This document shows positions 1 through 46,687 of a stretch of 64,000 bases of DNA, piece by piece. The stretch is taken from NCBI GenBank assembly GCA_964432825.1, contig CAYSOX010000007.1:975-64974 (forward strand), read 5' to 3'. Origin of the DNA: an uncultured Lachnospiraceae bacterium. Lineage in GTDB: Bacteria; Bacillota; Clostridia; Christensenellales; UBA1242. How positions within the stretch are numbered: the stretch's first letter is position 1; each line of letters begins with the position of its first letter. Position numbers and translations under genes: made by a program. The notes beneath the pieces are model-generated. The model was not told where the DNA came from and searched no databases. It was given only the letters and a program-made list of their open reading frames with translations.

Positions 1-2
1 AA

Positions 3-563
3 GATAACCTTTCTGAAACTGAGAAGACAAAAGAAAATGCGGATAATTTTTATGCTAATTATTTTAATCGAAAGCCCACAAATGTTGATGGTGTAGAAAG
101 TGATAGGCAAACAACAAACGCGAATACAGAAATTTCTGGATGCGAATTAGATGATTGTAATTGTCACGGAGAAGACAGTGAAGGATTGCATTCTCACAAC
201 TGCCACGATAATTGTTGCAATGAGCATCACCATAATTTAGAGCATAATTGCAATAAAGGGAAAAATTCTAACGAACAAGAGGTCGATTTATTAAATCAGC
301 AACTGTCAGAGGAAGAATACCTTGAAATTAGAGCAAAAAATCTTCAAACAAAACTTTCGAAATATAAAGAATATGAATTTGATGACGAGACGGATTTTTC
401 GTGCGAACTTGACCCGTCAAAAGTGTGTGATAATTGCGGAAAGTGTTTAGAGTCTTATAATACCGATAGTGAAGGTTTTACGCAAATTAAAATAGATAAA
501 ATTGACCAGTCTAAAACCTCACTTGATAGTCTATATAAAATGTACGGGCTGGATGACGAATAA
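3..563 (+). CDS. Cys/His-rich hypothetical protein, 5' end outside window
   Basis: Frame 3 is open from base 3 to the stop at 561-563. The TTG at 186 in the track is only the first in-window start. Contains His/Cys clusters HSHNCHDNCCNEHHHNLEHNC and CDNCGKC. A terminator hairpin follows. Confidence 0.5.
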   Translation, partial: DNLSETEKTKENADNFYANYFNRKPTNVDGVESDRQTTNANTEISGCELDDCNCHGEDSEGLHSHNCHDNCCNEHHHNLEHNCNKGKNSNEQEVDLLNQQLSEEEYLEIRAKNLQTKLSKYKEYEFDDETDFSCELDPSKVCDNCGKCLESYNTDSEGFTQIKIDKIDQSKTSLDSLYKMYGLDDE

Positions 564-565
564 AT

Positions 566-613
566 GCAAAAAAAACTTTACAAAAGGGAAATCCTAATGT
601 AAAGTTTTTTTAA
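566..613. terminator. bidirectional intrinsic terminator between convergent genes
   Basis: 10-bp stem aaactttaca (573-582) / tgtaaagttt (598-607). An A-run lies upstream and a T-run downstream. Confidence 0.6.
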
Positions 614-621
614 TTTAAAAC

Positions 622-1683
622 TTAATCGTTGTTTGGTGAATCGTCGCGAAGTTTTATTACATTTGCAACATTTCGTCTAATATCTTCACTCATAGCCGCA
701 TAGTGCTTTTTTGTTGTGTTTACATCTTTATGGCCTAAAACATCGGCAACAATATAAATATCTTTTGTTTCCCTATATAATTCGGTACCAAAAGTACTTC
801 GTAGTTTGTGGGGGGTTATCTTTTTAAGCGGGGTGGTTATATTTGCATATTTTTTTACCAGTTTTTGAACACTTCTTACAGTTATTCGTTTATTTTGTAA
901 GGATAAAAACAATGCGTTTTCTCCTCGGGCATCTTTGTTTTCGGCTCGAACGCGTAAATACTGTAAAAGGGCAATACGAACTTCGTCACCGAAATACACA
1001 ATCTCTTGATTTCCTCCTTTTCTCGTAATTCTAATTCCGTTTGTTTCAAAATCTACATCATCCAAATTTAAACCAACACATTCAGAAACTCGAATGCCAG
1101 TGCCTAACATCAATGTTATCATGGCAACATCGCGTTCTTTTGTCTTGTTATGATAGACCTGCTCGTGGTCAGATAAACATTTCCCACTTTCGGCAACTGT
1201 TATAAGTTTTGATATTTCATCTGTTTCTAGCCTAATTATTGGCTTATCGTGAATTTTTGGGGTTCTAACTTTTTGTGTTACATTTTCACGGATTAATTCT
1301 TTATTATAGAAATAACTGAAAAAAGATTTAATAGATGATAGTTTGCGTGCTTTTCCGATATCGCTATTGGTAAATTCTTTACTATTTTCTGTTTCATAAT
1401 GAGTTAAAAAACTTAAAAAATTTTCAATATCTTCAGCAGTTACAGCATTTAAATCCGAAACTTCTAAATTTTTAATGGTTTTTCCTTTAAATACATCTGT
1501 TTGAGTAGATAAATATCCTAAAAACAGCCTAATATCATAAGCATAATTAAGCCTTGTAAGAGGGGAAGTTGTTTGTTCGATCCCAACAAAATACTTATAG
1601 GCAAAATCTGGAAGTTCTGCCATAACCTGTCTTAATTTTATTAAAGTTGCTTTATTTCTTTGTTCAAAATATGTGTTTTTCAT
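622..1683 (-). CDS. tyrosine recombinase, Xer family (XerS/XerC-like, 353 aa)
   Basis: C-terminal catalytic signature: GIRVSE (Arg), ITPHKLRSTFGTELY (H-x-x-R), LGHKDVNTTKKHY (His and nucleophile Tyr). Has an N-terminal SAM-like core-binding domain. The length and the ITRKGGNQ motif recall single-recombinase XerS proteins as I remember them. Confidence 0.85.
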   Translation of the reverse strand: MKNTYFEQRNKATLIKLRQVMAELPDFAYKYFVGIEQTTSPLTRLNYAYDIRLFLGYLSTQTDVFKGKTIKNLEVSDLNAVTAEDIENFLSFLTHYETENSKEFTNSDIGKARKLSSIKSFFSYFYNKELIRENVTQKVRTPKIHDKPIIRLETDEISKLITVAESGKCLSDHEQVYHNKTKERDVAMITLMLGTGIRVSECVGLNLDDVDFETNGIRITRKGGNQEIVYFGDEVRIALLQYLRVRAENKDARGENALFLSLQNKRITVRSVQKLVKKYANITTPLKKITPHKLRSTFGTELYRETKDIYIVADVLGHKDVNTTKKHYAAMSEDIRRNVANVIKLRDDSPNND

Positions 1684-1760
1684 AATTTTATGATATCATA
1701 TTTTAAATTAATTGTAAAATAAATTTACAAACTTTTCGCAAAATTTATTTGCCGTACTAC

Positions 1761-1789
1761 TTGATTTTTTTATAAACTTTTAGTATAAT
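1761..1789 (+). promoter_or_regulatory. sigma-A-type promoter for the giant sigma-like gene
   Basis: TTGATT (1761-1766), 17-nt spacer, TATAAT (1784-1789). Confidence 0.5.
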
Positions 1790-1876
1790 AAGTCGCATAA
1801 AGTCGAGTAAAAAGAAATTCAATGTTTCAGATTCGAAATTTTAACATAAACTTTTAGTAAAAGCATTGATTTCTTT

Positions 1877-1911
1877 CTAAAAGAAGATGTGATGGCATCT
1901 TCTTTTTGTTT
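1877..1911 (+). terminator. terminator-like hairpin in the 5' leader (possible attenuator)
   Basis: Stem aagaagatg (1881-1889) / catcttctt (1896-1904), extendable to 11 bp, followed by tttttgttt. It lies between the promoter at 1761 and the RBS-backed ATG at 1943. Confidence 0.45.
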
Positions 1912-1942
1912 GAATATGTATGGCGATTTTTGGGAGATTTTT

Positions 1943-4900
1943 ATGGGAAAAGCAAATAATGATTTAATTGGTACAGCAGAAACTGAAAATCAGTCTGTTT
2001 TAGCGAGAAAGAGAAATAGGAAAAAATATGAAAGTCCTTCTTTTCAGATTATAAATTTTGAACAGGAGAATATTTGTGGAATAAAAGACAATTATGCATC
2101 TTCTTCACACTTAAGCGATTTGGATATATCTAATTCGCGGCTAGAAAATGGCAATACGGATTTAGGTGTTGAGAAAATTGTGCAGAGTCATCCACAAAAT
2201 CTACAAAGAGAGTCCTTTAGTAACCCCGTTAAAAATTTGACAGATGGTTCAAGGAGTGGGGATGTTCCTGCGGTTTTACAAATAAAAAATCAAATACCTG
2301 AAGAAATTCAATCTTTAATTTTAAACCTTGAAAGAATTGATAACCTTGCAAAGAAATTAAAAGAAAGAGGTAAAAGCGACGATGAAATTGCAGGTGCTTT
2401 AACTGAGGAAGATTTTGCAATTGCTGAACATTATGCAAGGGTTTATGTGTATTTGAAAGATGTCTTAAAATTAGGGAAAGAGTTTTTTTCTAAGATGGAC
2501 AGACTTGTTGGATTATTGGAGGCGGATAAGCATTTTAAAGATTTAGATGATTCGGTTGAATGTGTGGGAAGCAATACTCCAAAGATGGAAAATGCCGAAA
2601 ATACGGCATACAACACCCGAGAGGTAAATAATGACAGAATGATAGATGGTAATACACCTCGTGGCGGTTCTAAATCGACAACTGAAACGAGTGCAAAAAA
2701 TAGTCGCTCCAAAACCAGTAGTTTGCAAAATAAAACTAAAAATGGGAGAGTCGCCACTTCAAAACAAAGCGAAGAAAATTCAATTTTAACCTCTAAAATT
2801 TCCCAAGAAAAGCCCACTATAATAGGAGGGAAAAAGGTAGAACAAACATCTGCTACTCAATGTCACCCGAGCGAAATTAAGCCTTTAAGCGAAGAACAGA
2901 AGCAAGAAGTTCCAGTCATTAGTAGTGTCCAATATGGTGGATTATCAACAAAGGAACTTTTAGACCTTTATAATTCGTATGGAGTAGATACATCTATAGA
3001 AAAAATTGTATTTAAGAAAAAGGAGTTAAAACCCGAAATTAAAGAGAAAATGGGGGTTTTAAATCCTGAAAAATTGTTTTCATATATAAACAATAGAAAA
3101 CTTTGTATGCTTATTGAGACTGAAATTTATCAACCATCAGTTGTGGCTGAAAGATATGGGGTAAATAAAGATAGTTTAATTAATAACAATTCTGCAGTAC
3201 GAAGAGAACTATTAGATTTATTGGTGAATGCAATTAACATTAACTCGTTACAAAACGAGGGTTTTAGTGTGTCACAAATTGCCCAAAAACTGAACATATT
3301 TTCTGCTTCTGAGGTAACATATTATCAGTCTGTATACAAACATATCTTTGAAAATGGTGCAAAACCAAAAATTGAAACAGAAGATGTAATAAAAACCACT
3401 AGTGTGGTCACAAAAGAAGATTTTCGACTAGCACAACAAGCAATTAACAAGCCTAAAGATGTAGTTGTGCCAACAGAATGTACAAGGGCTATGAATAAGG
3501 TTTTTGAGGCACATTATGGATTGGTTAGGCTTATGAACCAAAGAGTTTTTGGAAATTTATCTTCAGGACAACGCGAGGAAATTGAAAACGCCATTTTGGA
3601 CGGATATTCTTTTGCGATTGAAACATTTGATTATGAGTCGTATGATAAATTTTCAACCTATGCAATCCGCTGGATGCAAATAAAAATGGGAGCGGTTTTA
3701 CGACGAATTTATAGCAGTTTGGGAACTTCTGAGCCATTGCTTAGAGCGGATACATTGTGGCTTGATAAACCAATAAACGATCAGCAAGCGGATAATAAAT
3801 ATAAAACAACTTATTCGGAATTTTTCTCGGATGGCTCTTATGAAGAAATGAAAGACGATATTGAGAGAAGAGATGATATTGAATACACGAAGCGATTACT
3901 AATGTATTTAAACCCTCAACAACAAGAAGTATTACTTAGAAAATATCGGGGTGAAACATTTGAATCTATTGGGCGTTCTAGAGGAATTACTCGACAGTCT
4001 ATCGAATTACAACATAGATTGGCTATGGATAAAATTAGAACATTAATTAGAAGAACATCTACGGTTGGTCAGTTTATAGATCAAGGGAAAACCTTTGAAG
4101 AAGTGTTTCGCGAAGTCGGTCAAGAGTTGGGGCTTAAAAATGTAGACAAGGTAAAGTTGGCATATAGACAATTTGTCCATATAAATAAAGGTGGGGCATT
4201 TCCATATGTAAAAACAAATGCAAGTACTACTACAAGTATGAATACTGCTCACCCTCAAGCAAAAGCACAAAAAACAAGTCGTTCAACAGAAAATAGTGTT
4301 GCAACAAAAAGCAAAACTTCGGAATTGGGCGTGTGGCATGTCTCACATCAAGATAGTAAAGCATATTTTGAATCTAAGATAGAAGAATTCAAAAAATCCG
4401 GATACTTGATTTCGGATGATTTTAGAACAAAAATGTCCATACTCAATATATTGGATGGAATAGAACTTTTGGTTGATGGAAAAATTAATTTAGATTTTCA
4501 AATATCTGAACTGTATGCAGGATTGTCTGTTTTTAATGCATTGTCTACTACTTCAAAAGAGTCTAGAACGCATATTAATGAATTTTTTAATGCAATATCT
4601 GAAGGTAAAACGCTGAGCGAAGTGCTAGAAATGATAATGCAAGCAAAACCTAACAATAAAAACAAAAAACGCCATGTAATACTGCAACAGAATTTTACAG
4701 TTTTGACTAATAACTTTATTAAAATTATTAAAAAAAGTTCGTTGGTACATCAAAAAAACGAATTATCAGCAAAATCACAAGGTGAAATGGAAATGCTTTC
4801 ATTATTGGATGGTTTTTATTTGAAGTTTGTGGATGGTGCTACAAATACACTACTAGAACCTAATTCAAAAGAAAATAAAATGATTAAGATTATCGATTTG

Positions 4901-5227
4901 CTTTATGGCAAATATGATGAAATAGATTTTGAACTTGTTGAAAAACTTGCAAATTGCAATATTCAAAAATTTTTTAAGGCAATTGGAAGTGGATTACCTT
5001 ATGAATATTACGATTTTGCAAAAAAAATATATTATAGGACTCCAGAATTCTACGAAGAAAAAGCGGGTGGTTTGAATTATTTCGCCCATAAAATGTATTT
5101 TACACAAACTAAGATTAAAAAATTCCTAGAACTCATAATTAATGAACATAACAATTCGGGTATAAATAGCCAACTGTTAAACTATTATTCGATAATATTT
5201 GAGGATGAAAGTCAAAATTTAAAGTAA
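1943..5227 (+). CDS. very large protein with an embedded sigma-70 family core (region 2 + region 4)
   Basis: ORF is open 1889-5227. I prefer ATG 1943 (RBS GGGAGA 5 nt upstream) because 1889-1911 is the leader hairpin. Region 2.x match: ILDGYSFAIETFDYESYDKFSTYAIRWMQIKMG (compare the canonical FD...G.KFSTYA.WWIRQ). Region 4 HTH: LNPQQQEVLLRKYRGETFESIGRSRGITRQSIELQHRLAMDKIRTL. About 540 aa N-terminal and about 370 aa C-terminal extensions have no motif I recognise. Confidence 0.7.
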   Translation: MGKANNDLIGTAETENQSVLARKRNRKKYESPSFQIINFEQENICGIKDNYASSSHLSDLDISNSRLENGNTDLGVEKIVQSHPQNLQRESFSNPVKNLTDGSRSGDVPAVLQIKNQIPEEIQSLILNLERIDNLAKKLKERGKSDDEIAGALTEEDFAIAEHYARVYVYLKDVLKLGKEFFSKMDRLVGLLEADKHFKDLDDSVECVGSNTPKMENAENTAYNTREVNNDRMIDGNTPRGGSKSTTETSAKNSRSKTSSLQNKTKNGRVATSKQSEENSILTSKISQEKPTIIGGKKVEQTSATQCHPSEIKPLSEEQKQEVPVISSVQYGGLSTKELLDLYNSYGVDTSIEKIVFKKKELKPEIKEKMGVLNPEKLFSYINNRKLCMLIETEIYQPSVVAERYGVNKDSLINNNSAVRRELLDLLVNAININSLQNEGFSVSQIAQKLNIFSASEVTYYQSVYKHIFENGAKPKIETEDVIKTTSVVTKEDFRLAQQAINKPKDVVVPTECTRAMNKVFEAHYGLVRLMNQRVFGNLSSGQREEIENAILDGYSFAIETFDYESYDKFSTYAIRWMQIKMGAVLRRIYSSLGTSEPLLRADTLWLDKPINDQQADNKYKTTYSEFFSDGSYEEMKDDIERRDDIEYTKRLLMYLNPQQQEVLLRKYRGETFESIGRSRGITRQSIELQHRLAMDKIRTLIRRTSTVGQFIDQGKTFEEVFREVGQELGLKNVDKVKLAYRQFVHINKGGAFPYVKTNASTTTSMNTAHPQAKAQKTSRSTENSVATKSKTSELGVWHVSHQDSKAYFESKIEEFKKSGYLISDDFRTKMSILNILDGIELLVDGKINLDFQISELYAGLSVFNALSTTSKESRTHINEFFNAISEGKTLSEVLEMIMQAKPNNKNKKRHVILQQNFTVLTNNFIKIIKKSSLVHQKNELSAKSQGEMEMLSLLDGFYLKFVDGATNTLLEPNSKENKMIKIIDLLYGKYDEIDFELVEKLANCNIQKFFKAIGSGLPYEYYDFAKKIYYRTPEFYEEKAGGLNYFAHKMYFTQTKIKKFLELIINEHNNSGINSQLLNYYSIIFEDESQNLK

Positions 5228-6031
5228 ATTGTATCCGTGCAAATTTTTGAACCTCAAAGACTAAGCATTTGGTTAAATTTAATCATTAATATTATACAAC
5301 AATAAACAATGTAAATTTTAAATAATACTTTAGTTAAACAAGTTTGCGAGGCTTTTGTAACAATTGTTAATGACAGTAAAATTTAAAACATAAAGTGGGG
5401 TAGGGACTTTGGATGTTTGATTTTATTTTAGAATTCAATAACTTTGACCCAAAATAATTCGCCAACTTTTCGTAAAAAATTATTTTGCTACTTTTTGTTT
5501 ATAATAACGCATAATAGTAATAAAACAAATTTTTACGAATACAATTTACGACACATAAAATTTAATTACTTACTTATTAAAATTTTACCACTTAAAACTT
5601 TTGCCAATATCACCAAACCAATTATAATTAAGCAATTTTTAAGAGAAATAATTTTATTAATTCTGTGTCAGTTTATATATGGCTTAAATTAATTTTTGAT
5701 AAGCGTTATGCCTACTAATTGCATTGTGAATTTTTCTGCTGTGTAATATTTTATAAAAATTAATTTTGATATTTTGCTTAATACAATTTGGCAATAAATC
5801 TTTAAGTTTCACGGTAATTTTGAATATGACAACATTTAATTAAAAAATTTTGTCCGTGCAAATTAAGTTTGTAGTCTAAAATTAAAGGCAGATGTTAATG
5901 AATTTTCGATTAAACAAATTAGACAGCAGAAGAACCTTAAAAAGTAAAAATAATTATAAAAATTTAAATATTATTCTTTTAAACTTGCATCCATACAAAA
6001 TATGACTAAAAACCTCTAACAATTCGTAAAA

Positions 6032-6093
6032 TCTGTATTTGGCGAATACTATCTTATTGATTATAATATACACAAAGACCTATTCCCTGTCAA
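6032..6093. repeat. attL direct repeat (62 bp)
   Basis: tctgtatttggcgaatactatcttattgattataatatacacaaagacctattccctgtcaa. About 59/63 identical to 12302-12364. Confidence 0.85.
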
Positions 6094-6111
6094 CTAAAAT
6101 TTCAATATTTT

Positions 6112-6993
6112 TTAAATATTTTTAAATTTGTCTATGATTTTTAGTAGATATGCAAAAATATATTCGTTAAAATCTAATACAAAATTTGAATTTATAAAAG
6201 GCTTAAGTTTTACTTGTTTATCCTTTCCAAGTTGTTTAAAGTAAAAAGACGGGTTGTCACATAACCAAAGAAGTTGCAATAACACATAATCACTTTTAGA
6301 CAATTTAATACAATCAAACAAATTTAAATTTCCACACACCATAATTTGAGGCAATTGCTTAGAAACAACCAAGTAATCACACGAATTGGTGCTAAGTTCT
6401 AATCGGGTCAAATCATAATCTAAATCGCTCTCAATGGCTTTATTGTAGAGTTTAACTCTTCCGTAATCACTAGTAGAACCTAAATATTCTGTACAATTTA
6501 CACCAGAACAATCATAAACAAATTTTTTATAAACACGTTTATCCTTAACAATAGACACATATTTTTTTGATATTGGTAAATCAATTGCAATATCATAAAC
6601 GCTCAAAGTCAAATTTATATGTAAATAATGCATATATTCTAGAACCATTGTTAACTCTTTACACTTCCCTACCCTATTCGGATTAAATTCAATAAAACAA
6701 CTAGTTTTTTCAGAAGACTTCAAACCTTTAAATCCTAAACCTACAGCAAATGTGTAAACACTATTATGAATATGCACCTTAAGTAAAACATTATATGCAA
6801 ACGACTTAGCAGACTGATAAACATCACAATCAGCAATGTCACTAATAAAACCTCTTAGTAAGTACATTTTTTGAGGAGAACAATAAAATTTAAACCTCAA
6901 CATATCAATTGAATAGATAACATTATTTAAACTTTTATAACAATCAAAATATTTTAACATACCAACCTCAAAATGCGGAAAACCGCCATTCAC
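6112..6993 (-). CDS. rolling-circle replication initiator (Rep_trans / pT181-RepC-like)
   Basis: Motifs FIEFNPNRV, YDIAIDL and EYLGSTSDYGRVKLYNKAIE...LTRLELS match my recollection of the Rep_trans family (E.NPNK; D.A.D; Y.GSR.S....R.Y.K..E...R.E). Position is next to att and the hairpin-rich intergenic region. Confidence 0.65.
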   Translation of the reverse strand: MNGGFPHFEVGMLKYFDCYKSLNNVIYSIDMLRFKFYCSPQKMYLLRGFISDIADCDVYQSAKSFAYNVLLKVHIHNSVYTFAVGLGFKGLKSSEKTSCFIEFNPNRVGKCKELTMVLEYMHYLHINLTLSVYDIAIDLPISKKYVSIVKDKRVYKKFVYDCSGVNCTEYLGSTSDYGRVKLYNKAIESDLDYDLTRLELSTNSCDYLVVSKQLPQIMVCGNLNLFDCIKLSKSDYVLLQLLWLCDNPSFYFKQLGKDKQVKLKPFINSNFVLDFNEYIFAYLLKIIDKFKNI

Positions 6994-6994
6994 C

Positions 6995-7308
6995 GCCCCT
7001 TGTTAGACGGGGGCTAACAATAAGTGCAATTTTTGTTTTTTTAAAAAAGGTGCCACTTCGTGGCATTATTTTTTTTTTGCATAAGTGCATACTATACACT
7101 CAACACAAATCGCAACACTAGACACAACTTTAGCATAGTAAAAATTAAGGGGACACCCCTTAACAACCAATGATTAGCACGAAGTCTTTTAATCAATTAA
7201 ACGCGAAATGTGTTTTTGAACACGCTGAAACATTGGGTACCCACAATGAACAGCAGAAAAAACTGTAACGCTGGTTAATAAAAGTTGACATACTTTTTGA
7301 AAAAGTAT
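6995..7308. other. phage intergenic region with four hairpins (candidate ori / packaging signal / terminator)
   Basis: Hairpins: gcccct/gggggc (6995-7014); tgccac-ttc-gtggca flanked by A6 and T13 (7043-7078); ttaagggg-aca-ccccttaa (7145-7163); atacttttt-g-aaaaagtat (7290-7308). Confidence 0.5.
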
Positions 7309-7350
7309 CAAAACAAGTAAGCAGAGCGTAAATTAAACGATAACAAAAAC

Positions 7351-7379
7351 TTGCAAACACACAGAAAAAAGTGTATAAT
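7351..7379 (+). promoter_or_regulatory. sigma-A-type promoter for ORF 7410-7997
   Basis: TTGCAA (7351-7356), 17-nt spacer, TATAAT (7374-7379). RBS AGGAGA at 7398-7403. Confidence 0.55.
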
Positions 7380-7409
7380 ATACAAAAATAAACAATTAGG
7401 AGAAAATAT

Positions 7410-7997
7410 ATGAAGAAAGAAAAAACAACAAAAATTATAATGCTAATAATTTTAAGTGTAATTGCAATACTAATAATAGCAACATCAATAATAACAAATA
7501 TGAATATTGCTATAACAATCTCTGTATCACTACTATCAGCAGTAGCAATAGTAATAACAATAACTACATTATTTGAAAATAAAGAAATTAAGTTCAAATA
7601 TCAAACCAAAACAAAGACAGAAACTAAAACCCAAGTCAACAATACAATAGAAATACAAAAACAAGAAAACGAAGAAACACATAAAACACTTCAACCGATA
7701 ATCAACGAAACGCCTACAAAAAAAGAAAATAAACCACAAAAACCAACAAGTGACAATGCAACCATTACAACTCTAAACATAATTAAATATATTTTATTTG
7801 GACTATTTGCAGTAAACACTATAATAACAATAGTATTTTATTTCACAATATTACTTATATACTTCAGCATAATAACAGAAATAATTGCAATAATCGAATT
7901 GATATTTGCTATATATATAGAAAAGAAAATTCAAAACATAAAAACAAACAATCTATTAAGCGAGATTCTAGAACAAATCAAAAATAATAAAAAATAA
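7410..7997 (+). CDS. phage-borne membrane protein on the opposite strand (4 predicted TM helices, Thr/Lys/Glu-rich linker)
   Basis: Strong RBS and promoter. Two N-terminal and two C-terminal hydrophobic helices. It is the only plus-strand gene in the element. Confidence 0.6.
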   Translation: MKKEKTTKIIMLIILSVIAILIIATSIITNMNIAITISVSLLSAVAIVITITTLFENKEIKFKYQTKTKTETKTQVNNTIEIQKQENEETHKTLQPIINETPTKKENKPQKPTSDNATITTLNIIKYILFGLFAVNTIITIVFYFTILLIYFSIITEIIAIIELIFAIYIEKKIQNIKTNNLLSEILEQIKNNKK

Positions 7998-8015
7998 TTT
8001 TTTAGTTTTTTTTTG

Positions 8016-8037
8016 GGGGGCGAATAAATTCGCCCCC
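8016..8037. terminator. GC-rich perfect hairpin between convergent phage genes
   Basis: gggggcgaat / attcgccccc forms a 9-10 bp stem. The long T-run is on the 5' side on the plus strand, so it is not a textbook terminator. It could instead be a packaging or origin hairpin. Confidence 0.4.
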
Positions 8038-8046
8038 TTTAAAACC

Positions 8047-8529
8047 CTAGAAAACAAAAAGCCAACCAATAAAATAAGTAACAAACACCAAAACTTGAAC
8101 AAGGCTAACACCAATAAAAATCAAAACATTAAAAACATTTATGAAGTAATTTAAAAAACGGAAAAAGGACCCCCAGACGACAGAACCGGTATCCAGCAAA
8201 GGAATAACCGAACTAAAATGAGCAATATTAACCGAAGGAACACTTTGAAGAAATTCCAAAAAACCACGAAAAGTTATAGTACTTGCACCAATCAATGTAC
8301 GATATAAAGCAAAAACAAGTAAAATCATAACAAAAATTTTAAAAATTGAACCAGAAAACTTAAATTTATCCGCTTTACTCATACTTGTATGCTTTGTAAT
8401 TTTAGTAAAACCCTCACCGTCACTAAATTTATCAACTGTTATCTTTCTAGAATGTATGCCACGACCAGTATAAGTTACACTTTGAGTTAAACTACCTTTT
8501 TGCTTTAAACTTTTATCACGAGAAACCAT
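8047..8529 (-). CDS. phage membrane protein (160 aa)
   Basis: Basic N-terminal region followed by about 3 TM helices. Directly follows the pIII-like gene. Confidence 0.55.
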   Translation of the reverse strand: MVSRDKSLKQKGSLTQSVTYTGRGIHSRKITVDKFSDGEGFTKITKHTSMSKADKFKFSGSIFKIFVMILLVFALYRTLIGASTITFRGFLEFLQSVPSVNIAHFSSVIPLLDTGSVVWGSFFRFLNYFINVFNVLIFIGVSLVQVLVFVTYFIGWLFVF

Positions 8530-8541
8530 AAAACTACCACA

Positions 8542-27289: not shown

Positions 27290-30061
27290 CTAATTGACAT
27301 TATCGCCAAACTTTTCATTAAATTCTTCCATTGACATATGAACGGTTCGGAGTTTACTTCCTTTACCCGGTGAAATATATCCTGCAAGTTCCATCTGGTC
27401 TATAATTCGTGCGGCTCGTGAATAGCCAACCCTAAATCTTCTTTGAACCATATTAATTGATGCTCCGCCGGATTGAATGCAAAGTTTTAAGGCTGATGGG
27501 AGCAATTCGTCTTGGTCGGGATTTTCAGGGTCATATCCACCCGTTGTATCTATTGCTGATTTACCTTCTTGTTTTGGGTCGGTTAAAATTTCTCTTTCAA
27601 GGTCATCGTCAAAATTTATTTCGTTGTGGTCTTTTATATACTCTACCACCTTTTTAACCTCATCCATACTCATATAACCACCTTGAAGTCTTACAGTAAC
27701 ATTTGAATCTTGAGCCGAAACCAACATATCCCCATAACCTAAAAGTTTTTCAGCACCCGTTTCATCTAGAATAACCCTAGAATCCACCGAACTACCAAGC
27801 GACAACGCAACTCTTGTTGGTAAATTGTTTTTAATGGTTCCGGTGATTATATCGGCAGATGGTCTTTGGGTTGCAATCATCATATGTATACCACTAGCAC
27901 GACCTAGTTGAGCAAGTCTTGCAATCTTTTCTTCTACATCTTTTTTCCCGACCATCATCAAATCTGCAAGTTCATCTATCACAATTACTAGATATGGTAT
28001 CATTTGTTCTTCATGTGTTTCGGTTACACATTTAGAATGGTTAAAGTCTTGAATATTTTGGAAACCATATTGTTGCAACTTCTTAAAACGCCTATCCATT
28101 TCTTTAACCGCCCAACCCAATGCATTTATTGCTTTGTCACAATCACAGACGGCATTTGGTATCATCATATGAGGCATACCATTGTAGCACGAAAATTCAA
28201 CTCGCTTTGGGTCAATCATAATAAACCGCAATTGTGATGGTGAACATTTGTACATTAAACTTAAAATCAAACTATGCAAAAATACAGATTTACCCGAACC
28301 GGTTGAACCGGCAATAAGCATATGAACAAGTTTTGGAAGTGACTTAACCACCACTTCGCCAGTGATACTCTTACCAAGTGCAACAGGAAGGTTTACGCTA
28401 GAAGTTTGAAATTCTTTACTTTCAAGCATTTCACGAAGTCCAACCGTGCTCCGTTTATCATTTGCAACTTCTACACCAACGGCATTCTTCCCTGGGATTG
28501 GAGCCTCTATTCTGACACCGCCTTTGCTTCTAAGTGCTGCCGAAATATCGCTATCGTAAGATAATATTTTTCTAACACTTGTTCCATACGGCATACTTAA
28601 TTCATACTGGGTTACATTAGGACCTCTTACAACACCTATCACTTTTGCATCTACATTAAAACTACTCAAAACTTGCTCTAGCGCAGTACTTTTCTGCTCA
28701 AAATCGCCACCATATGTACTTTCGTCATCCGAACGATATTCAAGTATTGATGTAGGAGGTGGACAATATGCTTTATCTGTTTGAGGCTTGTATTTTGTCG
28801 GTTTGCCAATATTAATGCCTATAGGGATTTGCTCAGGTCCTGCTTTAGGCTTTGAGCCAAAGAATTTATCTATAGGGTTTCCAAGAGTTTCTTGATCGTC
28901 AGTACCATTTTCCATGCCTGTTGAACTAAACGGAGTGAACGGATCACCCACGCCACCACCGAAACGGTCACGACCTCGTCCTCTTCCTAAACCGTCAATC
29001 GTGCCTGTTTTAGAAGTGTCATCAATTTCTTCTGTAGGTTGTCCTATTATCTTCGTTATCCAATCCGGTGTAGTACCATCGGAGTCATCTATAATTGGAT
29101 CATCGTCGGTTGGATATTCGTCATCATTTTCCGAATAATCATCACCTATTATATATCCTTCGTCTTCTGTATTGTCTACATCGTCACCATTTGTTTCGTA
29201 ACCTTGCTCAACATCCTCTTTAGGCGAATACACATAAACGCCATTTTCATCCTTAGTGTATACATAAGGTGTGGATGGTTTTTTATATGTATAAGGGTCG
29301 GTAATTGGAACCGCATTTTGAGGCGATGAATTTTCTGTTATATCATTATACCCATTTTTATCACCTGAAGTGTATCCACCATCAAAGTTAAAGGGTTCAG
29401 ACTCCATGTCATCTTCTTGCCCATTGTCAGCACCTGTATTTACTTTAGATGAATCTTCTAAAAGTCCACCGATTGTATCCGTCTTGGCAGTTTTTTCGTC
29501 ATCGACATACCTAGTGTTTGCCGTTGCTTTGATTTTTCTTCTATCCATACTTTTAATATTTAGATAATAATCGGCGGTTATGGCAACAAAAATAACTAGT
29601 ACTATGCCAAACATAATACATGCACCAACACCACTAAGTAAACACATAATTGGATAAGTGAATATGCTAAGAATCACTCCGCCTACGGTTACCCCTGACT
29701 GATATGTGACAACACTTTTTAAAAGGCTAAAATAATTAGAAAATTTGATTCCGTCTGTTTTTGCGAAATCAATCAAAAATGCCGTATGCAACAACATCGC
29801 CAAACTTATTGTTACACCTATAATGTATGCCAAATTTTTGTTTGACATAGAAAATCTCATATTAAGCGAATATGCAATACTTATTAGTATCCCTAAAATC
29901 ATCATAGGATAAAACATCAATCCAAAAATGCCTAAAATAAAATTGGTTATTTTATGCAAACCCGAAAAAAAAGTTAAAAGTGTAATGAGGGATAATATAC
30001 CCGCTACCACTATCCCCTTCCATTTAATTTCTTTTTTTACCTTTCTTGAATTAAAATACAC
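27290..30061 (-). CDS. ftsK: DNA translocase FtsK/SpoIIIE
   Basis: N-terminal TM helices, acidic low-complexity linker, motor domain with Walker A GSTGSGKS, C-terminal gamma winged helix (RRFRVGYSRAARIIDQME). Confidence 0.93.
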   Translation of the reverse strand: MYFNSRKVKKEIKWKGIVVAGILSLITLLTFFSGLHKITNFILGIFGLMFYPMMILGILISIAYSLNMRFSMSNKNLAYIIGVTISLAMLLHTAFLIDFAKTDGIKFSNYFSLLKSVVTYQSGVTVGGVILSIFTYPIMCLLSGVGACIMFGIVLVIFVAITADYYLNIKSMDRRKIKATANTRYVDDEKTAKTDTIGGLLEDSSKVNTGADNGQEDDMESEPFNFDGGYTSGDKNGYNDITENSSPQNAVPITDPYTYKKPSTPYVYTKDENGVYVYSPKEDVEQGYETNGDDVDNTEDEGYIIGDDYSENDDEYPTDDDPIIDDSDGTTPDWITKIIGQPTEEIDDTSKTGTIDGLGRGRGRDRFGGGVGDPFTPFSSTGMENGTDDQETLGNPIDKFFGSKPKAGPEQIPIGINIGKPTKYKPQTDKAYCPPPTSILEYRSDDESTYGGDFEQKSTALEQVLSSFNVDAKVIGVVRGPNVTQYELSMPYGTSVRKILSYDSDISAALRSKGGVRIEAPIPGKNAVGVEVANDKRSTVGLREMLESKEFQTSSVNLPVALGKSITGEVVVKSLPKLVHMLIAGSTGSGKSVFLHSLILSLMYKCSPSQLRFIMIDPKRVEFSCYNGMPHMMIPNAVCDCDKAINALGWAVKEMDRRFKKLQQYGFQNIQDFNHSKCVTETHEEQMIPYLVIVIDELADLMMVGKKDVEEKIARLAQLGRASGIHMMIATQRPSADIITGTIKNNLPTRVALSLGSSVDSRVILDETGAEKLLGYGDMLVSAQDSNVTVRLQGGYMSMDEVKKVVEYIKDHNEINFDDDLEREILTDPKQEGKSAIDTTGGYDPENPDQDELLPSALKLCIQSGGASINMVQRRFRVGYSRAARIIDQMELAGYISPGKGSKLRTVHMSMEEFNEKFGDNVN

Positions 30062-43652: not shown

Positions 43653-43906
43653 AAATTCACCTCTAAATCGTTTTATACCGATTATCGCCAAAAAATTTGT
43701 TTTCATACACATAATTTTTGAATTATTTTTAAATTTTCTCAAAGACTATTACTATATACTATCATTTGACGCTAATTTTAATGTAATTTCTAAAGTTTAA
43801 AATTATTTGTATGAATTTTTGATAAAATTACATATTATTATCGTCAAATTATAAAAATTTTTAAACCTTTGATTTTATGCAAAAAAATAAACTTAGGAGA
43901 CTATTA

Positions 43907-46687
43907 ATGAAAAAATATATAATTATATTAGTTACTCTTTTAATTCCTACATTCTTTTGTTCGGGATGTGTTGCAACCGACACCGAAATTGCCAATTCTT
44001 TGGATGGCAATATGACACGACTCGTGTATTCCGTTGGGTATTTAGATAGCATTAGCCAAACCGAAATGGCTGACCTCATTCAAAACACTAGTTATTTTGG
44101 AGGCGTTGAAACTCTTCAAAATAGTAATTTGGGATTGTCTGGACTAAAAGAGAACAACTTTAGGACAAGTGTTTTTAGTAACCCGCTCACTTCTATAAAT
44201 TCTAGCATAAACCGAAATTTTGAATCGCCAAGCACTGCGAATTTTTCTTCCTCTAATTTTAATGGTGAAAATTGTTCTTCATATAATCAATACGGCTCAA
44301 CTGGTATATACGGAAATAATACAAACGAATCCGCCAATGTTTTAACGGGACTAGCAAACTCTTCGGGCGACGGATTAATTAATAACAGCAACACAAATTG
44401 TAATTTTTGCGAAAATTGTAATTATAGAAATAAAAATTTAACTGGTAACACTTTAAGCGGTAATAACAATTTTGCAGGGGGGACTAATATGTATGGTGGT
44501 AATTTGGCGGGTGGTTCTAATACATATAATTGCAACACATGTGCCGGTGGGTGCAACACCAAAGTTTATCCAAATGGAAATTTGAATACAAATGGTGAAA
44601 ATCTTAATGGAAACAATACGCCTTGCGAAAACTACGGAATTGCCACCCTTCCACTTGTGGATGATGAATACCCTATAGCGGATAATGTAAACACCGGAAA
44701 TGCATCTGCAAATGCTCTTGGAGGACTTTATGAAACAAATGGAGCAACATCAATTAACGGAACCCAAACTGGATTAAACACCTCTTTTAATGGTCAAGAA
44801 AACATTAACACTTTAGATAGTGTCGGAAATTTAAATTCGGCAACGACTGAAACAATCACGGATGAAAACAATCAAACAAGCGGACTTTCGGGGGTTGTGG
44901 ACACCTCGCTTCTATTATCTTCTGCTAGTGATTTGAATGAAATTTTAATGCTTATTAGTCAAAAACGCGGTATTATAATGCTTTACTGTACCGATTTGAG
45001 AGCGGGCAAAGGAACACTTACTGCCGACAGCAAAGAGGCTATAACTGAATATATTGCGATAATAAAAGAAACCACCAATTACCTAAACACCTACTCTAAT
45101 ACGCTAACAACTTATATGAACAATATAAAAACTATTGCTTACACCGAAAACGCACAAGAGTTAATAAATGCAAAACTCATTAGAACCAATGAAATATTAA
45201 AGACTCGATATGCAAAACTTGACACTTGTATTGATTCGCTTGATGCAATTATTTCAATACTTCAGCGGTCTATTGGAATGGATTATGCATCTAATTACAC
45301 ACTCCAAACTGAAACGCAAAATGTGGCTATAAACAATGGTTCAGCACTAAATAATTCTACCGAAATTATTGAATCACAAGGAAATATTTTAAACAATTCA
45401 ACGGCAAACTTGCAGTCTAGCCAAAATTTAAATTCGTATAATAACGAATTGAATTCAACCTCAAAAATTTTGAATGGTAGTACAAATTTAAACTATAATG
45501 AAAATTTTACGATTAACCCTTATTCTAATAACTCAAACCTCAGCAACAATAATTGTGAGAACAACCTTTCAAATAGTTGCGGGAACTATGATAACCCCGT
45601 TTATCCATATTGCAATAATTTAAGTATTAATAAAAATTGCACTTGCGACACAATAAATCGCACCGCAAATAATAACCGTATTAATGATAGTTTTAATACC
45701 AATGCGCAAAATCAAAATGGAAATACAAAAATACTAAATGAAAAATTTTCTTCGGGTAATAACTTGGTAAGCGAGACCAATAATATTGCGGGAAACACCT
45801 TGGGAAAGGAAATTGAGAATAGCACTATTGGGAGTAACTTGGCAGTCGGAATTGATAATACTACTGCGGGAAACACTTTGGGAAAGGAAATTGAGAATAA
45901 TACTGTTGGTGGCAACTTTGCTGACGGAATTAATAACAATGTTACGGGAAATAATTCTAATATTGAGAGTGTTTTAAGTGGACTGCCAGCAAACACGCAA
46001 ACTTTAATTTTAAATCAAAGCCCAAACCAAACCACTGAAGATATTTTAAACGGATACCCAACCGCCTCACCAATAACATCACCAAACCCAACCAATATAA
46101 TTTCATCAATTGAGGTGAGTTCCAGCGCGACCGATTTAATGGATGAAGAAAATACTACTCAATCAATAAAAGAATTAAAAGAAGACAAAACTAAAATTCA
46201 AAACAAAATAATAGATTCAAATGTTGTTGTTATGCCTCAAGGTGATGAATTAAGTTTATCCGAAAACCAAAAAGATTCAAAAAACAAGGGATTGAGTTTA
46301 GAAAATAATAATGTTGACAGTGAAAAATTGCACTCAAAATTAAATACAAAAAAGAACGAAACTAAAAGTGAAAAGACAAAAGATGAATTAAACACTAAAA
46401 ATAATCAAAATACTACTAATATTGAAAAAAATATAATTTTGGTTAATGACACAAAGTTTGCAAACAGCGACAATTTCGAAACTTCAAAAACTAGTTCAAG
46501 TTTAAACGAAAATCTTCAATTAGAAAACTTTGACGAAAAAACAACTACCGAATTTATAAACCATATTTCATCAACCACCCTACCTACTATTGAGTCAGAC
46601 AAAATGTTTTCAGCAACCACACTTTTACCCGTCGTTAAAGAACAGGACACCGTAAAAACTCTACCTTACTATCCACAATTTAATTAA
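43907..46687 (+). CDS. very Asn-rich putative lipoprotein (about 926 aa)
   Basis: RBS TAGGAGA before ATG 43907. Signal peptide with Cys (LLIPTFFCSGC). Asn/Cys-rich low-complexity blocks. Central helical region (aa about 340-470). Internal about 75-nt coding repeat at 45780-45960. Confidence 0.7.
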   Translation: MKKYIIILVTLLIPTFFCSGCVATDTEIANSLDGNMTRLVYSVGYLDSISQTEMADLIQNTSYFGGVETLQNSNLGLSGLKENNFRTSVFSNPLTSINSSINRNFESPSTANFSSSNFNGENCSSYNQYGSTGIYGNNTNESANVLTGLANSSGDGLINNSNTNCNFCENCNYRNKNLTGNTLSGNNNFAGGTNMYGGNLAGGSNTYNCNTCAGGCNTKVYPNGNLNTNGENLNGNNTPCENYGIATLPLVDDEYPIADNVNTGNASANALGGLYETNGATSINGTQTGLNTSFNGQENINTLDSVGNLNSATTETITDENNQTSGLSGVVDTSLLLSSASDLNEILMLISQKRGIIMLYCTDLRAGKGTLTADSKEAITEYIAIIKETTNYLNTYSNTLTTYMNNIKTIAYTENAQELINAKLIRTNEILKTRYAKLDTCIDSLDAIISILQRSIGMDYASNYTLQTETQNVAINNGSALNNSTEIIESQGNILNNSTANLQSSQNLNSYNNELNSTSKILNGSTNLNYNENFTINPYSNNSNLSNNNCENNLSNSCGNYDNPVYPYCNNLSINKNCTCDTINRTANNNRINDSFNTNAQNQNGNTKILNEKFSSGNNLVSETNNIAGNTLGKEIENSTIGSNLAVGIDNTTAGNTLGKEIENNTVGGNFADGINNNVTGNNSNIESVLSGLPANTQTLILNQSPNQTTEDILNGYPTASPITSPNPTNIISSIEVSSSATDLMDEENTTQSIKELKEDKTKIQNKIIDSNVVVMPQGDELSLSENQKDSKNKGLSLENNNVDSEKLHSKLNTKKNETKSEKTKDELNTKNNQNTTNIEKNIILVNDTKFANSDNFETSKTSSSLNENLQLENFDEKTTTEFINHISSTTLPTIESDKMFSATTLLPVVKEQDTVKTLPYYPQFN

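Follow-up and report, generated by a model that had tools for sequence, protein, structure and literature searches.

The 64,000-nucleotide stretch analysed here (hereafter the window) comes from contig CAYSOX010000007.1 of an uncultured Lachnospiraceae bacterium and carries close to its left end a giant gene for a sigma-like protein, in which one complete unit of the sigma-70 family stands behind two apparently partial ones and ahead of a large helical domain. The gene belongs to a conserved arrangement: in every locus long enough to display it, lexA is followed by an open reading frame (ORF) for 213-270 residues, a 353-residue tyrosine recombinase on the reverse strand and the giant gene on the forward strand. 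Downstream of it, the window contains an inovirus-like prophage (Table 1). An initial annotation had placed here a protein of 1,112 residues with a sigma-70 core between large domains of no recognized kind. The ORF that it delimited is real, for 1889..5227 on the forward strand is open for 1,112 codons counted from GTG 1889, although its start has to be moved to ATG 1943. This is most likely the true start, giving a protein of 1,094 residues, because the ATG and a GGAG six bases 5' of it are conserved in all five aligned loci; in the same upstream alignment the stretch 1889-1943 is missing from a sister clade. The NCBI gene call begins at ATG 1892 and comprises 1,111 residues, with a sequence identical to that of the window. 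Residue numbers below are those of the 1,094-residue form unless stated otherwise.

Table 1. Features of the giant gene and its surroundings, in window positions (HMM, hidden Markov model; HTH, helix-turn-helix; AF2, AlphaFold2; pLDDT, predicted local distance difference test; pI, isoelectric point; dN/dS, ratio of nonsynonymous to synonymous substitution rates)
Feature	Positions	Strand	Basis
Tyrosine recombinase, 353 residues	622-1683	-	XerS model best, end to end, E 8.5e-60
Candidate sigma-A-type promoter-like site, TTGATT-17-TATAAT	1761..1789	+	consensus scan; conserved in window clade
Leader hairpin (stem of 11-12 bp) with a U-tract after it, ~30 nt 5' of the start codon	1879..1913	+	RNA fold
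Coding sequence of the multi-module sigma-like protein, 1,094 residues, from the most likely start	1943..5227 (including stop)	+	ORF, conserved ATG/GGAG, dN/dS ~0.25
Ser/Asn-rich predicted disordered N-terminus, residues 1-112	1943..2278	+	no secondary structure, pLDDT ~22, composition
Half-unit 1, HTH/YY module ERGKSDDEIAGAL...YARVYVYLKD and long helix, residues 113-200	2279..2542	+	small-sigma HMM, hhalign
Ser/Thr/Lys/Glu-rich disordered linker with short helical lead-in, residues 201-367	2543..3043	+	AF2, composition, HMM coordinates
Half-unit 2, sigma4-like HTH and YY module (NEGFSVSQIAQKLNIFSASEVTYYQSVYKHIFENGAKP), residues 368-490	3044..3412	+	small-sigma HMM
Complete small-sigma unit, residues 490-768	3410..4246	+	small-sigma HMM, collinear alignment, PDB sigma matches
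Basic Ser/Thr/Ala/Lys-rich linker, residues 769-795	4247..4327	+	composition, pI 10
Orphan all-alpha-helical C-terminal domain, residues 796-1094	4328..5224	+	no library match; AF2 helices
Inovirus-like prophage, ~6.3 kb	6021-12364 (genes 6112-12160)	-	73-nt direct repeats 6021-6093, 12291-12364
Rep-like protein of prophage	6112-6993	-	31% identity to Dulem virus 72 replication protein
Zot-like ATPase of prophage	10004-10834	-	56% identity to Inovirus sp. from pig

Sigma-like units and their small relatives

The complete unit consists, in order, of a helix resembling region 1.2 (TKEDFRLAQQAI), a sigma2 domain (~508-592), a linker resembling region 3.2 that reads LWLDKPI...FFSDGSYEE, a sigma4 domain (~641-705) and, at 715-754, the YY module, a C-terminal piece of ~40 residues with the pattern G....IA..L.L.....V..YY..IY.YLY.DG.KP. 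The motifs quoted in the initial annotation, namely FDYESYDKFSTYAIRWMQIKMG at 580-601, ITRQSIELQHRLAMDKIRTL at 700-719 and GFSVSQIAQKLNIF at 458-471 (numbering of the 1,112-residue form), are all present, and three kinds of comparison bear out its view of a genuine sigma2/sigma4 core in the middle of the protein. First, the best match in any single library is to PHROG 351 (RNA polymerase sigma factor; E 6.4e-16), the NCBIfam model TIGR02937 (sigma70-ECF superfamily) aligns with residues 516-700 over model positions 2-163 of 165 (E 1.5e-9), and Pfam Sigma70_r4 is found at residues 654-699 (E 2.7e-4, or 1.1e-4 with the core alone). Second, a profile HMM of ~261 positions built from 10 small sigma-like proteins aligns with residues 508-768 over positions 13-261 (115 bits; domain E 2e-37 in a search space of three proteins), and in a six-frame scan it matches the complete unit at E 1.6e-34. 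Third, a profile of the core and its 10 small relatives matches the solved sigma factors SigA, RpoD, SigB, SigH and WhiG at E 5e-14 to 1e-8; these PDB matches span sigma2 and, separately, the 3.2 linker plus sigma4, the latter being aligned with residues 284-378 of Clostridioides difficile SigA.

Since the family profile matches solved sigma factors, we judge the core to be a bona fide yet divergent sigma-70-family unit. It retains every invariant residue of a 12-sequence alignment of two giant cores and 10 small sigmas; Pfam Sigma70_r2 is recognized in eight of these 12, the window segment itself being without it at E<=0.01. RpoD models score at most 26 bits against cutoffs of at least 354, so that the RpoD/SigA equivalog level is not reached. 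Regions 1.1 and 3.0-3.1 of primary sigmas are lacking, region 2.4 being followed after only ~12-15 residues by the 3.2-like motif, and the layout is like that of the extracytoplasmic function (ECF) sigmas because there is no sigma3 domain.

The HTH-like stretches that had been pointed out upstream of the core are also real, in that the small-sigma HMM matches residues 113-171 and 368-490. However, what had been taken for an unknown N-terminal domain is, as read from these alignments, a series of degenerate 'sigma4 + YY' half-units of the small-sigma family joined by disordered linkers. Residues 113-171 correspond to HMM positions 179-241 (domain E 2e-5 in the three-protein search, 0.018 in the six-frame scan) and residues 368-490 to positions 140-261 (E 5e-17 and 3.4e-14, respectively). 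The two half-units also resemble each other, hhalign pairing residues ~139-171 with ~436-468 at a probability of 84% (E 8e-6), and BLASTP aligns residues 387-477 with the sigma4 and YY module of a small sigma encoded on a metagenome contig (L010; 32% identity, E 1.7e-8). Predicted disordered segments rich in Ser, Thr, Lys and Asn, and roughly fitting in length, fill the places where the sigma2 domains of units 1 and 2 would be expected; by HMM coordinates, residues 201-367 sit where sigma2 of unit 2 would be. The sister-clade protein goes further, with four half-units before one full unit (four partial and one full HMM match) in a chain of 1,360 residues (P0057, L007) or, in L001, of 1,373 codons interrupted by an assembly gap.

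On the C-terminal ~300 residues, in which the initial annotation had recognized no motif, our searches agree: they have no match in Pfam, NCBIfam, PHROG or PADLOC, no homologue beyond the four clusters of giant proteins among 1.84 billion representative proteins, and no PDB sequence match at E<=10. Modelled alone with AF2, this domain is predicted to form ~15 helices, at a confidence too low for the model to be of use (pLDDT 38.7). Its reading as a fourth decayed sigma unit is unsupported (hhalign probability against the sigma unit, 2%). The AF2 model of the whole protein, from alignments of 4-5 sequences, has a mean pLDDT of 39, with half-unit 2 its sole part at 55-82; Foldseek comparison of this poor model with the PDB gave as top matches nothing but sigma factors, all weak (best E 2.4e-3). 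The product is probably soluble and cytoplasmic, because hydropathy over 19 residues peaks at 0.96, too low for a membrane-spanning helix, and thus no transmembrane segment is predicted.

A survey of homologue lengths, as the initial annotation had suggested, separates three full-length relatives from 43 proteins of 180-430 residues among the 46 matches of an exhaustive HMMER search with the giant-family profile over the 1.84 billion representative proteins. In all but one of the 43, the best-matching stretch falls within profile positions ~500-745; in P0020 the sigma4 aligns best to the second half-unit of the giant. All 10 of the small matches that were scanned against NCBIfam are sigma-70-family proteins. 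The closest relatives are rare, unannotated sigma-like proteins of 257-295 residues from low-GC metagenome contigs, and these small YY-module sigmas (they include P0005-P0009, P0013, P0016, P0018, P0020 and P0021) display an N-terminal LTxEDYxxAKTD helix, sigma2, an SLD...LSDxSYE linker, sigma4 and the YY module. When the small-family profile was used in a word-indexed search, most matches were to generic RpoD and no useful relative was added. The giant core can thus be described, by its sequence, as sigma-70 in the broad sense and, by collinearity with the whole-family HMM, as a member of the YY-module subfamily, no named subgroup fitting it; at 1,094 and 1,360 residues, however, the giants are not the single-unit proteins of 260-295 residues that are otherwise typical of that subfamily.

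Genes for small YY-module sigmas occur in tandem, with two adjacent copies on L010 and four consecutive ones within 2.8 kb on L012, separated by gaps of 7-15 nt. In the giant, the match of unit 2 runs out at residue 490 (HMM position 261), and that of unit 3 sets in 18 residues later, at residue 508 (position 13). This spacing mirrors that of the abutting tandem genes, making the fusion of a tandem array the simplest reading. The profile alignments demonstrate, at the level of sequence, both the multi-unit architecture and its origin from small-sigma units.

The arrays extend over 64-2805 of L012 and 942-2571 of L010. The L010 pair, whose members are 27% identical to each other, adjoins genes for secreted or surface-type proteins, and P0007 is encoded by a single small sigma gene on L011. 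The run numbers of L010 (SRR25400530) and L011 (SRR25400521) are close to SRR25400526, the source of one copy of the giant gene (L002).

Inheritance of the gene and its surroundings

The giant family comprises 14 distinct sequences in four clusters at 90% identity, gathered from Logan and NCBI assemblies. Further members were found neither in GTDB species representatives, IMG/VR and JGI metagenomes nor, by tblastn, in plasmid and phage collections, and its distribution does not extend beyond a small set of closely related, uncultured, low-GC bacteria, probably of the gut. Twelve of the 14 are called intact and full-length, at 1,093, 1,094/1,111 or 1,360 residues, and a 13th (P0003, 906 residues, L001) is a call shortened by an assembly gap in a frame that is open for 1,373 codons. 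That gap, together with a frameshifted copy (P0004, L002), is what could be cited for a fusion created by misassembly or frameshift, or for a decaying pseudogene. The number of intact copies from NCBI and Logan assemblies, an overall dN/dS of ~0.25 and the domain-specific pattern of constraint effectively refute such an artefact, which the initial annotation had named as a possible undoing of its finding. The frameshift of the L002 copy lies at ~9010-9030, by an A-run within sigma2, and may be an assembly error or a pseudogene allele.

By Nei-Gojobori estimates from two comparisons, every structured module is under purifying selection. Constraint is strongest in sigma2 (dN/dS 0.085, the lowest in the protein), followed by sigma4 (0.14), the C-terminal domain (0.17), half-unit 2 (0.20) and half-unit 1 (0.21), and the linkers are looser at 0.37-0.58 (0.37 for residues 201-367, 0.58 for 716-775). 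For residues 1-130 the ratio is 0.51 against L006 and 0.21 against the closer L003, where counts are low. In every segment dN/dS is below 1, and positive selection is not seen at segment resolution. The synonymous divergence (dS) of the giant gene, 0.05 and 0.23, matches that of the recombinase (0.05 and 0.26) and comes near that of lexA (0.17, L003 against L006); the gene has therefore been co-inherited with its neighbours, with no recent import. It is inherited vertically.

The position of the gene between a tyrosine recombinase and an inovirus-like prophage, and the fact that a phage-protein family, PHROG 351, is its best single-library match, lend some colour to the proposal of the initial annotation that it may be part of a mobile element, or its controller, and to the related idea that the recombinase or the prophage carries or governs it. 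The proposal does not withstand the comparison of loci, and we regard it as highly unlikely. The giant gene lies outside the direct repeats that bound the prophage, and in the sister-clade locus L007 it is present while the prophage is absent, the corresponding attachment site being empty, an uninterrupted 10-6-10 imperfect palindrome. Because the sister clade has the gene without the prophage, it is not prophage cargo; it is a chromosomal backbone gene, as its synonymous divergence and the empty searches of phage, plasmid, IMG/VR and JGI metagenome collections also argue. The recombinase, for its part, looks like a chromosomal XerS-type enzyme and not an element integrase. It stays below the XerS equivalog cutoff (202 bits against 267), but it is conserved between clades at 90-91% identity with a dN/dS of 0.03-0.07; among GTDB representatives its matches reach 25-26% identity only.

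The prophage encodes, beyond the proteins in Table 1, a coat-like small hydrophobic protein of 80 residues and a pIII-like protein of 340 residues. Its Zot-like ATPase is also 43-55% identical to those of rodent-faeces inoviruses ('bajarodino viruses'), and these prophage relatives in pig and rodent faeces, which are all that bears on the point, suggest a mammalian gut habitat. Within its attachment site, at 6029-6054 and 12296-12321 (and at 5628-5653 of L007), lies the dif-like 10-6-10 imperfect palindrome ATTCGTAAAA-TCTGTA-TTTGGCGAAT. Xer-mediated integration is known for elements of the CTX-phage and IMEX type. By analogy, the dif-like site and the XerS-like recombinase gene 4 kb away suggest that the prophage integrated in this manner.

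Upstream of the giant gene, the candidate promoter and the leader hairpin are confined to the window clade. The hairpin is stable (dG -15.4 kcal/mol, z-score -4.5, with none of 200 shuffles equally stable) and is seen in the window, L003 and L006, and not in L001 or L002; terminator-like as it is, it may act as an attenuator. The promoter is a candidate only, because the frequency of promoter-like sites around the gene, internal ones included, does not exceed that in shuffled sequence. The GC content of the gene is that of the window, and an Rfam scan of window positions 1-14,000 found nothing. In the AT-rich 3' intergenic region, TCCGTGCAAATT occurs at 5234-5245 and 5853-5864 and nowhere else in the window; as a meaningful motif it was ruled out, since at least two matches arise in eight of 100 shuffles.

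Several further observations concern the surroundings. The GC skew flips at ~5500-6000, being positive over 1-6 kb and negative over 6-64 kb, except at 12-14 kb, with a value of about zero at 44-46 kb, and to the right of this switch nearly all genes are on the reverse strand. The switch may mark the replication terminus, though the window begins too near it to separate an effect of gene orientation; such a reading fits the dif-like site, the XerS-like gene and ftsK (27290-30061). Between lexA and the recombinase, the window holds at 186-563 (+) the 3' part of the 213-270-residue ORF, which is acidic, rich in Cys and His, and 50-58% identical between clades. A conserved ORF of 206 residues with an N-terminal hydrophobic segment lies at 13557-14177 (+), where the nucleotide sequence is 78% identical to that of L007. 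One of the few forward-strand genes amid reverse-strand neighbours (43877-46687) encodes a predicted lipoprotein of 936 residues, rich in Asn, Ser, Thr and Gly, with a signal peptide, an FFCSGC lipobox and no family match; it has no relation to the giant sigma.

A proposed function and its alternatives

We propose that the giant is a lineage-restricted alternative sigma factor of the sigma-70 family, derived from fused tandem paralogues and bearing its flanking modules in cis, a reading to which we would assign a probability of roughly 50%. A tandem array of ~270-residue sigma paralogues would have been fused by read-through into a single gene. In its upstream copies the sigma2 halves would have decayed to disordered linkers and the sigma4 HTH and YY half-units would have been retained; the last recognizable copy would have stayed complete, with the orphan helical domain of ~300 residues after it. 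The complete unit would, we infer, still bind core RNA polymerase and steer it to a dedicated set of promoters. The half-units and the C-terminal domain would act in cis, either through extra contacts with DNA or protein or, alternatively, by keeping the sigma unit silent until it is set free by a signal or by proteolysis. ECF sigmas with fused extensions and pro-sigma factors operate by such cis contacts or release. That the complete unit would still serve as an alternative sigma factor is suggested because nowhere in the protein is constraint stronger than in its sigma2, because both clades and the small family preserve the 3.2-like linker, and because all the invariant residues of the alignment are retained.

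Several observations weigh against this proposal. The matches to the general family models are below the curated cutoffs, at 37.7 bits against 42.9 for TIGR02937 and 20.8-22 bits against 24.1 for Sigma70_r4. When the window and sister proteins are read against what we take to be the E. coli sigma70 sequence of regions 2.2/2.3, DLIQEGNIGL is replaced by EIENAILDGY, and the WW pair appears as RW in the window protein and as NM in the sister clade. These regions of sigma70 supply the residues for melting of the -10 element and for contact with the clamp helices of beta-prime, and here such residues are partly substituted. Neither an anti-sigma gene nor a target operon came to light, nor did a cognate promoter motif. 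As described above, a frameshift splits one of the 14 copies; the AF2 model is of low confidence throughout most of its length, and the gene evolves fast, with 31-33% protein identity between clades compared with the 90-91% of the adjacent recombinase.

These substitutions, and the fact that they differ between clades, are part of the case for the main rival, in which the giant is an ex-sigma protein with multiple HTHs that has lost its binding to RNA polymerase and acts on DNA as a transcription regulator or organiser. Such a role would make ready sense of the 3-5 HTH-bearing units per chain (five in the long form), and weak matches of GerE/LuxR-type HTH models to six of the 12 family members point in the same direction, as does the precedent of partial sigma homologues reported in Mollicutes (PMC5138195). 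We nevertheless consider it unlikely, if a serious contender: purifying selection peaks in sigma2 and not in the HTH units, and the small family, like both clades of giants, maintains the LWLDKPI...SDGSYEE linker. To our knowledge a linker of the 3.2 type is meaningful only inside RNA polymerase. Other readings, with the giant as a pro-sigma factor, a defence component or a mobile-element gene, are less likely still.

As a pro-sigma or polyprotein, the long form would be inactive, and proteolysis in the linkers (~491-507 and ~769-795) would free a sigma factor of ~280 residues. The complete unit is indeed flanked by short, fast-evolving, low-complexity linkers and equals a free-standing small sigma in length and order, and N-terminal pro-sequences are documented in sigma control (PMC7826278). 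What makes the idea improbable is that the half-units and the C-terminal domain are themselves under purifying selection (dN/dS 0.17-0.21), that known pro-sequences have tens of residues as opposed to 490 and 330 here, and that no protease gene is linked at the locus.

The fast evolution relative to neighbouring genes might likewise evoke an anti-phage or conflict-system component with a sigma-like domain, comparable to MzaA, a large protein (726-position model) with a C-terminal sigma domain to which PADLOC yields a weak match (E 0.0014). That match covers sigma2 only (491-583), the NCBIfam MzaA model NF041931 is not matched, and none of eight neighbouring ORFs matches any PADLOC model; with dN/dS below 1 throughout and a gene that stands alone at a conserved site of the chromosome, a role in defence is very improbable.

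Within the preferred reading of the giant as an alternative sigma factor, a bolder, 'poly-sigma' version can be imagined, which we put forward as speculation with the odds against it. The extra sigma4-like HTHs might recognize further upstream elements of the -35 type, or they might vie with the genuine sigma4 for access to DNA or the beta-flap, and the C-terminal domain would be a sensor. If true, the protein would in either case recognize promoters, or regulate itself, in a way that is not described for any sigma factor.

Comparison with known sigma factors and related systems

As a rule, a sigma factor consists of one unit and has 180-620 residues, and the elaborations known to us are short pro-sequences or one C-terminally fused sensor domain. 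Large multidomain sigma fusions are not without precedent in principle; what is unusual, and testable, in the giant is its architecture and evolutionary route. No source gives the protein a name, and tandem or poly-sigma proteins are unreported in the literature searched; the multi-unit, repeat-derived sigma architecture appears to be new, not having been found described in the databases or literature searched. It offers a clear natural example of a regulatory architecture made by the fusion of a gene array with partial domain decay, of which apparent free-standing tandem ancestors persist in other low-GC metagenome contigs. If the giant is still a sigma factor, it poses the concrete question of what additional sigma4 modules do on the holoenzyme; if it no longer is one, it shows the conversion of a sigma factor into a multi-HTH regulator. 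For the time being, with the family so narrowly distributed, its practical impact is limited.

Of the known groups, the ECF (group 4) sigmas include members, such as ECF41, ECF42 and ECF56, with fused extensions of the SnoaL-like, TPR, Cys-rich, transmembrane or DUF1835 type (Casas-Pastor et al., 2021; PMC7826278). The giant shares with these a sigma2-sigma4 core that lacks sigma3, and domains fused in cis with no anti-sigma gene adjacent. Its core, however, is under the sigma70-ECF cutoff, and it is extended on both sides, by ~800 residues in total; the N-terminal extension consists of apparently sigma-derived repeats, and the C-terminal one matches no described type. None of the described extension types was found in the giant, Pfam recognizing nothing outside the core and no transmembrane segment being present. 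With pro-sigmaE and pro-sigmaK of Bacillus and BldN of Streptomyces it has in common an N-terminal extension ahead of a complete sigma; theirs are short pro-sequences, whereas the giant has 490 residues of conserved modules, a 330-residue C-terminal part and no linked protease. MzaA of the MZA anti-phage system (NF041931, PDLC02203) resembles it in that the sigma-70 core is one module of a large protein, but only sigma2 aligns, and weakly, the MZA partner genes are lacking and the other flanking domains differ.

Sigma4-type modules uncoupled from sigma2, like the half-units of the giant, are known from two settings. SigO-RsoA of Bacillus subtilis is a split sigma factor. Mollicutes are reported to possess species-specific partial sigma homologues, often consisting of the -35-binding domain only (PMC5138195). 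Both differ from the giant in being separate polypeptides, whereas it chains sigma4-only units before a complete sigma.

The closest parallel remains the small YY-module sigmas, the whole of which is collinear with residues 490-768 of the giant. They share with it the TxEDYxxAK helix, sigma2, the SLD...SDxSYE linker, sigma4 and the G...IA..L......YY..Y.YLY.G.KP module, and P0007 has in addition the AINxPxDxxV insertion of the giant. Compared with them, the giant is ~3-5 times longer, adds 2-4 sigma4+YY half-units and the orphan C-terminal domain, and is a single gene at a fixed locus where the small sigmas form arrays.

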